Below, piece after piece: positions 1,504-28,104 of a stretch of DNA of 64,000 nt; the first letter of the stretch is position 1, and the number at the start of each line of letters is the position of its first letter. The notes beneath the pieces were generated by a model. That model did not search any database and was not told the DNA's origin. It was given only the letters and a program-made list of their open reading frames with translations. The position numbers and the translations under genes are program-made. The DNA comes from Escherichia coli (GTDB taxonomy: Bacteria > Pseudomonadota > Gammaproteobacteria > Enterobacterales > Enterobacteriaceae), in NCBI RefSeq assembly GCF_024502345.1, contig NZ_JALDNN010000001.1. The stretch is one strand, 5' to 3'.

Positions 1504-2886
1504 TTATAAGTCGTCGAACACGCTAAGCGCGTCGGAGAGTTTTTTAACGCCAAAAATCTGCATCCCTTCCGGCGCTTTTTTCGGTACGTTAGCCGCCGGA
1601 ACAATCGCCCGGCGAAAACCGTGTTTCGCCGCTTCAGAGATTCGTTCCTGACCGCTGGGCACCGGGCGGATCTCCCCTGCCAGCCCGACTTCACCAAACA
1701 CCACCAGATCCTGCGGCAGCGGTCTGTCACGCAGGCTGGAAACCATCGCCAGCAGTAACGCTAAATCAGCGCTGGTTTCGGTCACCTTAACGCCGCCGAC
1801 CACGTTCACAAACACATCCTGATCGGCCATTTGCAGACCACCGTGACGGTGCAACACAGCCAGCAGGATTGCCAGACGGTTTTGTTCCAGCCCCACTGCC
1901 ACGCGGCGTGGGTTCGCCATCATCGAGTGATCGACCAGCGCCTGAATCTCCACCAGCAGTGGACGCGTTCCTTCCCATACCACCATCACTGAGCTACCGG
2001 AGGTCACTTCATCGCCGCGGCTTAAGAAAATTGCCGAAGGGTTGCTGACTTCACGCAGCCCCTGTTCGGTCATCGCGAAGACGCCCAGCTCATTCACCGC
2101 GCCGAAGCGGTTTTTATGGCTGCGCAAGGTGCGAAAACGGGAGTCGGCATCGCCATCCAAAAGCACCGAACAGTCGATACAGTGTTCCAGCACTTTCGGG
2201 CCAGCCAGCGAACCATCTTTGGTTACGTGCCCCACCATGACAATCGCCACACCGCGCGTTTTGGCGAAGCGTGTCAAATAAGCCGCTGTTTCACGCACCT
2301 GCGCCACGCTACCAGGCGATGACTGTACATCCGCCATATGCATCACCTGGATCGAGTCAATTACCATCAGCTTCGGTTGCTCTTCTTCGGCAATCAGGCA
2401 GATCTGTTCGATGCTGGTTTCCGACAACATATTGAGATTGTCAGTCGGCAGGCCAAGGCGATGAGCGCGCATTGCCACCTGTTGCAGCGACTCTTCGCCG
2501 GTGACATACAGCGTTTTCATCTGCTGGGCCAGTTTGCACAGCGTTTGCAGTAGCAGCGTGGATTTCCCCGCACCAGGGTTACCGCCAATCAGAATGGCAC
2601 TTCCTGGCACCACGCCGCCGCCTAGTACGCGGTCGAACTCTTTAAATCCGGTGGAAAAACGCGGCAGCTCTTCAAGGCTGATATCGGAGAGTTTCTGGAC
2701 TTTTGCCACCCCGGCGCTACCGGCATAGCCGCTGAGACGCTCGTTACGCGCCACCGTTGGCGACGCAGCAAGACGCACCTCGGTGATGGTGTTCCAGGCA
2801 TGACAGGCACTGCACTGCCCCTGCCAGCGCGGATAATCGGCCCCGCATTCATTACAAACAAAGGCGCGTTTTGGAGCTTTTGCCAC
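1504..2886 (-). CDS. radA: DNA repair protein RadA (Sms)
   Basis: ORF 1504..2934; 460 aa from GTG start (VAKAPKRAFVCNECG...), zinc finger CxxC-CxxC, Walker A GGNPGAGKST, Lon-like C-terminus. Confidence 0.92.
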   Translation of the reverse strand: MAKAPKRAFVCNECGADYPRWQGQCSACHAWNTITEVRLAASPTVARNERLSGYAGSAGVAKVQKLSDISLEELPRFSTGFKEFDRVLGGGVVPGSAILIGGNPGAGKSTLLLQTLCKLAQQMKTLYVTGEESLQQVAMRAHRLGLPTDNLNMLSETSIEQICLIAEEEQPKLMVIDSIQVMHMADVQSSPGSVAQVRETAAYLTRFAKTRGVAIVMVGHVTKDGSLAGPKVLEHCIDCSVLLDGDADSRFRTLRSHKNRFGAVNELGVFAMTEQGLREVSNPSAIFLSRGDEVTSGSSVMVVWEGTRPLLVEIQALVDHSMMANPRRVAVGLEQNRLAILLAVLHRHGGLQMADQDVFVNVVGGVKVTETSADLALLLAMVSSLRDRPLPQDLVVFGEVGLAGEIRPVPSGQERISEAAKHGFRRAIVPAANVPKKAPEGMQIFGVKKLSDALSVFDDL

Positions 2887-2934
2887 GGTGTACCTCGTTA
2901 ATGCTGTGCCGCCCGCAGGATGGCGGGCGAGCAA

Positions 2935-3903
2935 TTACTTCTGATTCAGGCTGCCTGAGAGGATGCAGAATACCCCCATCAGGTCAGCGTGACGGATGGT
3001 GACTTCCGCCTTTTCATTCACTTTTGGCTTGGCATGGTAGGCAATCCCCAGCCCTGCCGCTTTGATCATCGGCAGGTCATTGGCTCCATCGCCAATCGCC
3101 ACGGTCTGCGCCAGCGGGATTTCATACTCCTGCGCGAGGCGAGTCAGAGTTTTCGCTTTGTACTGCGCGTCTACGATGTCGCCGATCACATTGCCGGTAA
3201 ATTTACCGTCCATGATCTCCAGTTCATTGGCTACCACGGCTGTCAGGCGCAGCTTGTCGCGCAGGTATTCAGCAAAGAAAGTAAAGCCGCCGGAGGCAAT
3301 CGCCACTTTCCAGCCCAGCGTTTCCAGCTTGAGCACCAGTTGCGTTAAGCCTGGCATCAGCGGCAGATTTTCACGCACCTGTTGCAGAATATTGGCGTCA
3401 GCGCCTTTCAGCGCCGCCACACGGCTGCGCAGGCTGGCGGTAAAATCGAGTTCGCCGCGCATCGCCCGTTCGGTTACTTCCGCCACCATCTCGCCCGTTC
3501 CGGCCAGTTTGGCAATTTCATCAATACATTCAATCTGGATGGCGGTGGAATCCATGTCCATCACCAGCAAACCCGGCGTGCGCAGGTGCGGGATTTTCCC
3601 CAGCGGGGCGACATCCAGTTGCGCTTCATGGGCCAGGCGCGTAGCCCGTGCGGTGAGTGAACCTGCCAGACGAATCACCTGATAATCTTCCACGCACCAG
3701 GCGGCAACAATCACCATCGCCGCACCCAGTTTGCTCTGGTATTGGGTCAGACGCTGTTTATCCAGCCCACGACCATACAGCAGCCAGCCGCTACGACCTG
3801 CGTGGTAATCCAGTGGCATCACTTCATCACCACTTAATGAAAGAGGCAGACCCGGCCATAAAGAGACATCTTCAGGCAGGTCGCACCAGGTAATGTTAGG
3901 CAT
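2935..3903 (-). CDS. serB: Phosphoserine phosphatase
   Basis: 322 aa from MPNITWCDLPEDVSLW; HAD motif DMDSTAI; the longer ORF 2935..4041 is an upstream extension. Confidence 0.92.
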   Translation of the reverse strand: MPNITWCDLPEDVSLWPGLPLSLSGDEVMPLDYHAGRSGWLLYGRGLDKQRLTQYQSKLGAAMVIVAAWCVEDYQVIRLAGSLTARATRLAHEAQLDVAPLGKIPHLRTPGLLVMDMDSTAIQIECIDEIAKLAGTGEMVAEVTERAMRGELDFTASLRSRVAALKGADANILQQVRENLPLMPGLTQLVLKLETLGWKVAIASGGFTFFAEYLRDKLRLTAVVANELEIMDGKFTGNVIGDIVDAQYKAKTLTRLAQEYEIPLAQTVAIGDGANDLPMIKAAGLGIAYHAKPKVNEKAEVTIRHADLMGVFCILSGSLNQK

Positions 3904-26174: not shown

Positions 26175-27196
<1,022 letters not shown>

Positions 27197-27301
27197 GGAT
27201 ATTTATCAGGATTTATCGGTTTCTGAACCCTGGATATGTTTATCTGTCCCGGCCTGTTGAATCAGGCGGGGAAAAGGTAAAGACAATCAAGAGGATTATT
27301 T

Positions 27302-27574
27302 ATGGACAATAACACCATTTCTCTACAGGAGTTGCTCGACTGCATTTCAAAGCTTCGGGATGATGTAAATGCCCTCACTGTTGCATTTTCATATTTGGCC
27401 TTATCAATTCCCAGAGAACAAATGCAACCAACACTGGCATCGCTCCTGCTTGAATCACGCAACCCCAAATGGTCCCAGGAACAACAAAATTCTTTCAAGT
27501 GGCTGGCGGCATTACTGGAAGAAAAATATGCTGGTAAAATTACCATTTCGGTGGAGTCTTCAGAGAATCAGTAA
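27302..27574 (+). CDS. Hypothetical 90-aa protein on the strand opposite to the lysis cassette
   Basis: ORF fills the gap between endolysin and ydfR-like gene; hydrophilic, helical-looking; no homolog recalled. Confidence 0.25.
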   Translation: MDNNTISLQELLDCISKLRDDVNALTVAFSYLALSIPREQMQPTLASLLLESRNPKWSQEQQNSFKWLAALLEEKYAGKITISVESSENQ

Positions 27575-27884
27575 TTCTTCCTGGTAGCTTTCCTTTGTAG
27601 GTTATCCACACATTCTGCGCCTCTAAAATTACGGGGCGCTTTTCCGGCGACTGCTCATCCCCTTCACATAACCCGGCTGCAACTTCCAGGAAGACCTGTC
27701 TGATGCTCCTTCTGGCTGCTGCCTCATAAAACTCCAGCGCGGCACCTTCAACACGGTCCAGCGAGATGTCCAGGTCAAAAATTTCACCGTCAAAGCGTTT
27801 TTTGTCCCTTAATGCTACAGTTACCGCAACTTTATTCTCAAAATTGCGGATCCCTTTCACAATCAGTTCATAGTTTTGTGTCAT
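27540..27884 (-). CDS. YdfR-like prophage protein (DUF1327)
   Basis: Sits between holin and endolysin as ydfR does in Qin. Confidence 0.6.
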   Translation of the reverse strand: MTQNYELIVKGIRNFENKVAVTVALRDKKRFDGEIFDLDISLDRVEGAALEFYEAAARRSIRQVFLEVAAGLCEGDEQSPEKRPVILEAQNVWITYKGKLPGRITDSLKTPPKW

Positions 27885-27888
27885 TGAA

Positions 27889-28104
27889 TTACTCTCCCCG
27901 TGCAACCTTACGCTTGTCTTCTTTAATCTTGAAATAAAGGTTTGTCAGGTACGTCAGCAAGCCAAATACCAGACTACCCAGCACACCGATTGCAGCCCAC
28001 TGTGACGGAGTTACTTTATCGAGTAACTGCAATGCCCAGAAACCAGCATTACCAGCCGATGTGCCATAGGCGATACCTGTTGTTAACTTATCCATTGATT
28101 TCAT
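27889..28104 (-). CDS. Holin (phage 21 S / EssQ-like)
   Basis: 71 aa with TM segments WALQLL...[15 protein letters not shown] and a charged C-terminus. Confidence 0.8.

Follow-up and report, generated by a model that had tools for sequence, protein, structure and literature searches.

Morons, taken here in the sense of Juhala et al. (2000) as summarised in PMC3594210, have been recognized in several phages. Characterised examples are bor and lom of lambda, gp15 of HK97, a membrane-type protein involved in superinfection exclusion, and Cor of HK022, N15 and phi80 (PMC3594210). All are independent accessory transcription units residing in lambdoid late operons, with expression presumed to take place in the prophage state. 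The lambda bor and lom products, as Cor, are membrane or outer-membrane proteins. Two additional systems are closer in layout to the locus described here. HK022 gp23, annotated as 'srb protein; moron gene product' (NC_002166), is a protein of 73 aa whose gene, between the tail genes I and J, runs against the late operon and overlaps a small convergent neighbour (moron gp22) at the 3' end of the latter. In phage ES18 (NC_006949) the pair gp25/gp24, marked as 'possible moron', resides between the tail genes M and L. ES18 gp25 is a small opposite-strand ORF converging on gp24, a DUF1327 protein of 86 aa; the two genes abut without overlap, each with an annotated putative terminator.

The window, i.e. 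the whole 64-kb stretch of DNA analyzed, corresponds to a Qin-like lambdoid prophage of E. coli. A 90-codon ORF, called ORF90 hereafter, is found in its lysis region, flanked by the following genes.

26175-26666, minus strand: rzpQ (Pfam, and RefSeq annotation of strain PAR)
26663-27196, minus strand: rrrQ, endolysin (SAR-type lysozyme; Phage_lysozyme), context lying outside the module
27302-27574, plus strand: ORF90, 90 codons, with ATG at 27302 and TAA at 27572-27574; the 90 aa product is RefSeq WP_001315200.1, 'hypothetical protein', phrog_2411
27540-27884, minus strand: ydfR (DUF1327, 114 aa), convergent partner of ORF90; the last 35 nt of ydfR, 27540-27574, are shared with the tail of ORF90
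27889-28104, minus strand: essQ, P21-type (class II) holin (Pfam 'P21 holin S')

According to Pfam and to RefSeq annotation, all the listed neighbours are encoded by the minus strand, and ORF90 alone by the plus strand. The DUF1327 match of ydfR spans residues 1-112 (E about 1e-42). Strain PAR is 100% identical to the 501 bases around ORF90. Its RefSeq annotation reports cspI, rzpQ, rrrQ (lysozyme), a 'YdfR family protein', essQ (class II holin) and cspB on the minus strand, and WP_001315200.1 on the plus strand, at exactly the ORF90 coordinates. The sequence-only reading, which had noted a 90-codon plus-strand ORF at 27302-27574 in a 344-bp gap between endolysin and ydfR, is thus confirmed by both the ORF list and RefSeq as to the exact coordinates of the ORF, and is essentially correct as to the gap, which measures 343 bp between the start of rrrQ (27196) and the stop of ydfR (27540). 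That the ORF occupies the gap holds for most of its length, the exception being the terminal 35 nt, which run convergently into the 3' end of ydfR. The GC content is 42.9% for both ORF90 and the insert, 51.3% for rrrQ, 47.0% for ydfR and 49.9% for the window overall, a modest difference. ORF90 is very probably a genuine small protein gene, cargo of a moron cassette which includes the convergent ydfR and is located between the pinholin and the SAR endolysin of the Qin-like prophage.

ORF90 resembles HK022 gp23 in being encoded opposite to the late operon and in overlapping the 3' end of its convergent neighbour. Both genes are preceded by sequences of the same leader family, matched in HK022 at E 7e-53, and in the window at E 9.9e-6 for the promoter-proximal half only. 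HK022 carries the full structured leader, whereas hairpin 2 and the UCAGCC/GGCUGA elements are missing in the window; moreover, the HK022 cassette is in the tail operon (genes I/J), ORF90 in the lysis operon. Both proteins are helical, with a similar helix-Pro-helix pattern, and alignment of the two families by hhalign is suggestive but not significant (P 0.002, probability 13%). The two-gene layout of ES18 is that of the window, with gp25 similarly placed behind a leader (model E 1e-50). No homology to ORF90 is detectable for ES18 gp25 (A4 HMM E 0.0095 in a 77-sequence set), and gp24 is shorter than YdfR. YdfR itself (DUF1327, PF07041) is the 3'-overlapping partner of ORF90 and is not homologous to it. 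The products of lambda bor and lom, HK97 gp15 and Cor are unrelated to the ORF90 protein, which, in contrast to them, is predicted to be soluble. The family to which ORF90 belongs, phrog_2411, carries no functional annotation.

The match to phrog_2411 covers the full length of the protein (positions 1-90 of 90; E 4.9e-57, 191 bits). Scans against Pfam and NCBIfam assigned ORF90 to no family, and a sequence-profile search of the PDB gave no match. The AlphaFold model (pLDDT 83) is a three-helix bundle, with helices at residues 8-34, 38-52 and 59-77; disorder is confined to residues 81-90, the tail which overlaps ydfR. The predicted fold yielded no informative structural match. No membrane-spanning or signal segment is apparent in the sequence, read by eye, or in the AlphaFold model, and the protein is predicted to be a soluble three-helix bundle.

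In a word-seeded search, relatives of ORF90 (71-100% identity) were found in Escherichia and Shigella only, plus one partial 'Pseudomonas sp.' entry. All are labelled 'hypothetical', and one variant is named Ybl58. Distant homologues, measuring 81-97 aa and 30-40% identical, were identified by two successive profile searches, the first of which was exhaustive and covered 1.8 billion representatives. These also match phrog_2411 (E 1e-9 to 1e-19), and the core common to the homologues reads ELL..I..L+..VN.L..AFSYLAF......T I.AL+FES.N. Besides other phage contigs and Citrobacter, their sources are the chromosomes of Serratia, Sodalis, Chania, Gibbsiella, Chimaeribacter and Acerihabitans. A search of IMG/VR with P0067 gave no match. 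ORF90 itself was found in the isolated phages Chlobot, vB_EcoS-783R2 and phiSTEC1575-Stx2k. Two lineages have the homologue between the tail genes M and L, and a Citrobacter prophage has it upstream of the holin. In a phage contig which includes terminase genes, the homologue and these genes are on opposite strands; one more, in a short phage contig, has the same convergent layout. All phage-borne homologues which could be placed run against the late genes around them, and each overlaps a small convergent ORF at the 3' end of the latter. A convergent partner is missing for the chromosomal homologues of Serratia and Sodalis. The homologue of a Serratia-like genome lies between dinI and bssS; the dinI neighbourhood prompted an inspection by eye for a LexA box upstream, and none was seen.

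The regions upstream of the distant homologues share the sequence GA(A/T)GGCUGAUUA(A/C)C within a covarying stem, and a second covarying hairpin located further upstream. A pattern scan of IMG/VR for the leader motif, followed by GGAA and ATG, returned at least 120 matches. Among the matches listed, at least 104 loci have a common element, about 95 nt long, ahead of small ORFs of 60-99 aa; these cargo ORFs form, among the same matches, at least 24 clusters with no detectable mutual relationship. The element is made by a 5' UCAGCC, a hairpin 1, and a hairpin 2 with a GAUGGCUGAUUA loop. By BLAST against isolated phages, the leader was found ahead of HK022 gp23 and ES18 gp25; it is present also in SPN3UB, HK633, mEp213, mEp043 and others. 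These units are grouped in this analysis as leader-bearing moron cassettes (HK022 gp23 / ES18 gp25 type). For 90 of the 104 loci (among the matches listed), the cargo faces a convergent ORF of at least 40 aa, which terminates close to or within the cargo 3' end, and the layout is that of ORF90, an opposite-strand cargo in the range of 60-99 aa which converges on and overlaps a partner. The DUF1327 gathering score was passed by ES18 gp24 and by one cluster of partners (7 IMG/VR loci). Pairwise BLAST of the partners supported homology only for L089_62 and L094_63 (E 3e-6). A YdfR-like C-terminal tail (ITGSLKxPP) common to all partners was considered and discarded, as the similarity to YdfR is not significant.

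In an alignment of 36 leaders, compensatory double changes were observed at 7 of the 8 pairs of hairpin 1 and at 4 of the 6 pairs of hairpin 2, and 91% of the cells pair, vs 28-48% in slid controls. RNAalifold independently returned hairpin 1 stacked on a long-range UCAGCC/GGCUGA helix which competes with hairpin 2. Both sides of this helix were fixed by the search pattern and filter, hence conservation there is uninformative on covariation. The distant ORF90 homologues L089, L096, L101 and L102 carry leader motifs; the leader model scores L096, L089 and L102 (E 8e-46 to 2e-11), and finds no match in L101 at E <= 0.01. Searches of Rfam 15 with the ORF90 region of the window and with the leader-bearing loci gave no match at the element. 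An isrK match in L124 (E 0.75), on the opposite strand, was judged to be due to chance. A literature search for 'srb protein' and for the leader sequence retrieved nothing relevant.

These data raise the possibility, put forward here tentatively and as somewhat less than an even chance, that ORF90 is one cargo family of a cassette system, widespread in temperate phages of enterobacteria and apparently undescribed. Such a system would consist of a conserved promoter, a structured leader (about 95 nt) and a hypervariable set of small ORFs, inserted antisense in late operons and interlocked with a convergent partner which is often a DUF1327/YdfR protein. The leader would be a new cis-regulatory RNA, the cargoes an arms-race repertoire of exclusion, defence or counter-defence functions, and YdfR may provide a link to RNase E. 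The GAUGGCUGAUUA loop of hairpin 2 could pair with the 5' UCAGCC, and the alternation of the long-range helix and hairpin 2 might work as a switch controlling, for example, translation or stability.

The elements upstream and downstream of ORF90 in the window are the following.

27197-27252, plus strand: promoter-proximal half of the conserved moron leader region, by homology (nhmmer leader model)
27204-27212, plus strand: TATCAGGAT, in the promoter-proximal half
27228-27233, plus strand: CCCTGG, in the promoter-proximal half
27235-27240, plus strand: TAnnnT -10-like hexamer TATGTT, a candidate, inside the leader-homologous segment
27248-27271, plus strand: 5' hairpin CCCGGCCTG-TTGAAT-CAGGCGGGG, at the position of canonical leader hairpin 1
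27289-27295, plus strand: Shine-Dalgarno AAGAGGA, its GAGGA core (27291-27295) being spaced 6 nt from the ATG
27617-27643, plus strand: weak terminator-like hairpin GCGCCTC-TAAAATTAC-GGGGCGC followed by TTTT, a candidate from MFE and centroid structures

The leader model, built on 82 sequences, has one significant nhmmer match in the 64-kb window, at 27143-27243 on the plus strand. The match corresponds to model positions 43-122, and stops where the structured RNA would begin. The 27197-27252 segment shows a very low diversity (pi 0.014). The same half of the leader was detected at other ORF90 loci, both in E. coli and in phages, and gave no match in LH85-a (L002) or K-12 (L004), which lack the ORF. 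A scan for consensus sigma-70 promoters found none in the upstream region of ORF90; a putative promoter may be set at TATGTT, with transcripts starting near 27247-27250. The 27225-27310 interval folds at -28.4 kcal/mol (z = -3.7), and 0 of 200 shuffled sequences were as stable. A 5-bp core of the 5' hairpin is kept in all variants (e.g. AGCCTG..CAGGCT in L005), and its position suggests that the hairpin is equivalent to hairpin 1 of the leader. The structured half of the leader is either absent in the window or replaced by a diverged hairpin, and AAGAGG, which in canonical leaders makes the left arm of hairpin 2, would serve here as Shine-Dalgarno. The region upstream of ORF90 is read as a probable degenerate copy of the cassette leader.

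Downstream, the 27617-27643 hairpin is found 43 nt past the ORF90 stop, inside the antisense strand of ydfR, where it could end the ORF90 transcript. The 96-nt region including it is not unusually stable (z = -0.66). A terminator scan detected no canonical terminator; the 9-nt loop of this hairpin exceeds the length allowed by the scan.

ORF90 would be transcribed on its own from the weak promoter at TATGTT, against late transcription, and would therefore be expressed from the repressed prophage. Late transcription antiterminated by Q, converging on ORF90 and running through it, would silence the gene by collision and antisense RNA. The protein may bind a host or phage partner, and act in lysogenic conversion, exclusion or counter-defence rather than in lysis. 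In a rival reading the functional product is mainly RNA: the plus-strand transcript, which is complementary to ydfR at its 3' end and possibly to the holin gene as well, would keep down leaky expression of ydfR and the lysis genes during lysogeny, and the ORF would be secondary. The convergent overlap of 35 nt, the recurrence of a convergent 3' partner in the related cassettes (90 of 104 among the matches listed), the unusual stability of the ORF90 5' region and the lack of a strong terminator ahead of ydfR are all in keeping with this alternative. It is nevertheless unlikely, as purifying selection acts on amino acids along the whole ORF90, the protein family is kept at 30-40% identity where DNA is not, and the Serratia and Sodalis chromosomal homologues are without a convergent partner. 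An antisense effect could coexist with the ORF90 protein, but cannot replace it.

The reading of ORF90 as cargo of a moron cassette is sustained by the variability of the slot between ydfR and rrrQ. As advised in the sequence-only reading, the spacing was compared with that of Qin: in the K-12 prophage the two genes overlap by 4 bp, and the ORF is absent. In LH85-a the annotation shows a 63-bp gap devoid of ORFs. The interval missing at junctions of this type is the following.

27253-27544, no strand: 292 bp absent from LH85-a-type junctions, where 19 bp are found in their place (BLAST and MAFFT junction mapping)

In TUM17668 the same slot hosts an unrelated plus-strand ORF of 86 aa (phrog_2572), and the leader is kept through hairpin 1. 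This alternative cargo (L003; TUM17668 form) features a clear GC-rich terminator hairpin with a T8 run. The whole region is found in about 1050 genomes, vs about 1950 carrying the flanks only. LH85-a keeps both flanks of the module, and its -10-like hexamer is mutated to CAGGTT; the ORF-less arrangement in the ORF90 lineage looks like a 292-bp deletion, rather than the state preceding a fresh insertion of ORF90. In phage Chlobot the arrangement is that of the window. In phiSTEC1575-Stx2k, ORF90 is kept with ydfR and the class II holin, and a different lysis cassette is found at the endolysin side. Overall, ORF90 occurs in Qin-like prophages, in nanS-p/Stx-type backgrounds, in phiSTEC1575-Stx2k and in Chlobot, and its homologues occupy other slots elsewhere.

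The region is thus extra DNA set between genes which are adjacent in related phages; it diverges, modestly, in base composition, and has spread horizontally among different phage genomes. ORF90 does not share the strand or operon of the lysis genes and has no membrane, muralytic or lipoprotein domain, nor any Pfam lysis domain. ORF90 is an ordinary accessory moron gene, already annotated as hypothetical. The sequence-only reading had proposed either an inserted moron gene or a spurious frame. Comparative anatomy upholds the moron, with two amendments: judging from the junctions compared, the unit which interrupts the holin-endolysin pair is made by ydfR and ORF90 together, and the insertion does not appear to be a fresh one.

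According to another hypothesis, ORF90 is a dedicated component of the lysis cassette, such as a regulator of lysis timing or an inhibitor of the pinholin or SAR endolysin. Its location between the holin/ydfR genes and the endolysin would fit, as would the persistence of the link to class II holin and ydfR in phiSTEC1575-Stx2k. Such a role is decidedly improbable for a gene which is encoded by the opposite strand, whose product has a predicted helical fold with no apparent membrane or signal segment, and which is missing in many prophages equipped with the same holin, ydfR and endolysin. Homologues found in the tail region between M and L, close to the terminase, upstream of a holin and in the chromosomal dinI-bssS interval lie in other operons and slots, and for this reason ORF90 is not regarded as tied to lysis.

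The coding status of ORF90 was assessed in 79 related loci, taken from IMG/VR and complete genomes, which span the region in a single alignment. They correspond to 44 haplotypes of the 800-bp region, and to 26 haplotypes of ORF90. The frame is intact in 24 of the 26 haplotypes (75 of the 79 loci); an internal premature stop is found in the remaining 2 haplotypes, and another two end one codon early. The sequence-only reading was to be refuted by homologous prophages showing the same spacer without a conserved frame, and this is not the case. Over the 79 codons of ORF90 located outside the ydfR overlap, pN/pS is 0.32 (codon bootstrap 95% CI 0.18-0.58), and 0.05% of the replicates reach 1 or more. 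For ydfR, used as positive control, pN/pS is 0.38. The ratio ranges from 0.98 to 1.37 in three of the five alternative frames, and is 0.245 in a fourth, an antisense frame which shares wobble positions. Variable sites at codon positions 1, 2 and 3 of ORF90 are 17, 12 and 34, respectively; the lowest number at position 2 is as expected if the plus strand is the coding one. Conservation of the ribosome binding site, suggested earlier as a check, was found: the GAGGA core is invariant in all the 10 upstream variants of the 79 loci, and the adjoining bases vary.

Some part of the query is matched by 3001 of 5426 complete E. coli genomes, with a coverage of 80% or more in 1051; in these 1051 genomes, which have the full region, ORF90 is annotated by RefSeq. 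The exact ORF90 sequence is found on at least 1000 contigs. Many decayed copies, frameshifted or reduced to 46-61 aa, are stored in the protein database. Selection on ORF90 is therefore not universal, as expected for genes of cryptic prophages. No direct evidence of transcription or translation turned up in the literature for WP_001315200.1, phrog_2411 or Ybl58.

It may be argued that the rrrQ-ydfR spacer is non-coding, and that its plus strand is open by chance. ORF90 is short and without Pfam or NCBIfam match, truncated variants exist, and the scan found no consensus sigma-70 promoter. A chance frame, the second option of the sequence-only reading, is very improbable, and is refuted by a frame kept in 75 of 79 loci, a pN/pS confidence interval which excludes 1, an invariant Shine-Dalgarno, a full-length PHROG match, and homologues of the same length, 30-40% identical, found in other genera and contexts. 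The least credible alternative of all is that the true gene is a 94-codon minus-strand ORF (27262-27546), which would leave the lysis genes on a single strand without a break: this frame is open in the window, has an apparent pN/pS of 0.245, and its ATG overlaps the ydfR stop (ATGGTAA) as for translational coupling, but it shares wobble positions with ORF90, so that a low ratio is expected here as a mere reflection of the plus frame, is interrupted by 1-2 stops in 12 loci (11 of the L081/L054 group, plus L005), all with ORF90 intact, would encode a Ser/Cys-rich product unlike a protein, leaves position 2 of the plus frame as the least variable (12 vs 17 sites), and is passed over by both PGAP and PHROGs, which choose the plus-strand ORF. 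On the evidence of conserved frame, purifying selection, invariant Shine-Dalgarno, PHROG match and distant homologues, ORF90 is a real, conserved protein-coding gene, and not a spurious frame.

ORF90 is worth keeping as a gene, labelled as accessory (moron) rather than as a lysis gene. Together, ydfR and ORF90 are best read as one inserted module in a pinholin/SAR endolysin/spanin cassette which is otherwise phage-21-like. A functional link between the two convergent genes is conceivable, and worth testing. About one fifth of the complete E. coli genomes carry this uncharacterised protein. ORF90 itself is of low interest for the window, and the notable part is the association of a conserved leader with hypervariable cargo. 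The relatives of ORF90 are part of a large set of small, fast-swapping ORFs placed under one conserved leader. If the cassettes are expressed from prophages, these ORFs would provide a catalogue of candidate lysogenic-conversion or anti-phage factors, and the leader, if the cassette system is true, would be a handle for finding such cassettes and studying their regulation.

In temperate enterobacterial phages, small ORFs (60–99 aa) of 24 or more unrelated families are preceded by a conserved element about 95 nt long, here called the leader. From the 5' side it features UCAGCCCG, hairpin 1, a linker, hairpin 2 with the loop GAUGGCUGAUUA, the motif AAGGAA, and the ATG. Compensatory changes were found at 7 of the 8 pairs of hairpin 1, and the 5' UCAGCC of the leader is complementary to the loop of hairpin 2. 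The leader has no match in Rfam 15, and no paper on it was found in a literature search.

Leaders and small ORFs (L-numbers denote compared loci)
L105-L224: leader, IMG/VR loci
L225:2398-2581: leader, HK022
L226:1900-2097: leader, ES18
L096:3807-4006; L089:3841-4006: leader at the loci of distant phage-borne ORF90 homologues
L092:4001-4279; L093; L091:4001-4294; L098:2542-2811: chromosomal ORF90 homologues, 89–97 aa
Within L003:1504-2080, + strand: 86-aa ORF of E. coli TUM17668 (phrog_2572, WP_001557934.1)
Window 27262-27546, - strand: 94-codon antisense ORF having wobble positions in common with ORF90

Chromosomal homologues of ORF90 reside outside prophage late operons. One, in a Serratia-like genome, is flanked by dinI and bssS, one in Sodalis ligni adjoins a GFO/IDH/MocA oxidoreductase gene, and one is flanked by autotransporter and AraC-type regulator genes. 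None of those at L091, L092, L093 and L098 is associated with the leader, or with a convergent partner.

In the window, the region upstream of ORF90 (27225-27310, + strand) folds at -28.4 kcal/mol (z = -3.7), far better than shuffled controls. In the predicted minimum-energy fold, CCCU(GG) at 27228-27233 pairs with the ORF90 Shine-Dalgarno sequence AGAGG; whether the CCCU(GG) segment would be part of the ORF90 mRNA depends on the position of the transcription start.

The 94-codon frame opposite ORF90 starts at an ATG overlapping the ydfR stop codon (ATGGTAA), and its pN/pS is 0.245, a value which is falsely low. Stops in other lineages rule it out as a gene, and this frame is a caution for dN/dS tests where frames overlap.

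The lysis genes of the window (26663-27196 and 27889-28104) belong to the phage-21 type. The holin (27889-28104) measures 71 aa and starts with MKSMDK, a dual-start pinholin motif, and the lysozyme (26663-27196) features a hydrophobic SAR-like segment at the N-terminus. A terminator-like hairpin (27159-27177, + strand) lies within the coding sequence of this segment. Class II holin, ydfR and ORF90 are present also in the Stx2k phage phiSTEC1575-Stx2k (L088, OQ243220; locus 1785-3803). After ORF90 comes a distinct second lysis set, made up of two holin-family genes and an M15 peptidase, which here replaces the rrrQ-type lysozyme. In the same phage an iraM-like anti-adapter gene is found on the opposite strand, flanked by stx2B and holin.

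The C-terminus of YdfR comes in three or more versions: the window (27540-27884) has ..TPPKW; LH85-a, an E. coli form lacking ORF90 in the slot between ydfR and rrrQ, has ..TPPESQP; and K-12 (L004:4555-4866) has an unrelated helical tail of 30 residues. The break point among them coincides with the cassette junction. Residues 1-72 of K-12 YdfR reportedly bind the RNase E catalytic domain, and RNA is reported to co-purify with the protein (PMC13232886). One prophage that is otherwise 99% identical has its ydfR split by a ~1.3-kb insertion (L007:1210-2520) encoding a 295-aa ORF, read from its translation alone as a putative IS3-family transposase; ORF90 is intact in this prophage.

In TUM17668 the ydfR-rrrQ slot hosts the 86-aa ORF, unrelated to ORF90, at the place of the latter. 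More of the leader is kept there than in the window, through hairpin 1, and a GC-rich hairpin with T8 makes a clear terminator. Unrelated ORFs occupy one slot in the window and in TUM17668, and the ydfR-rrrQ slot therefore swaps cargo.
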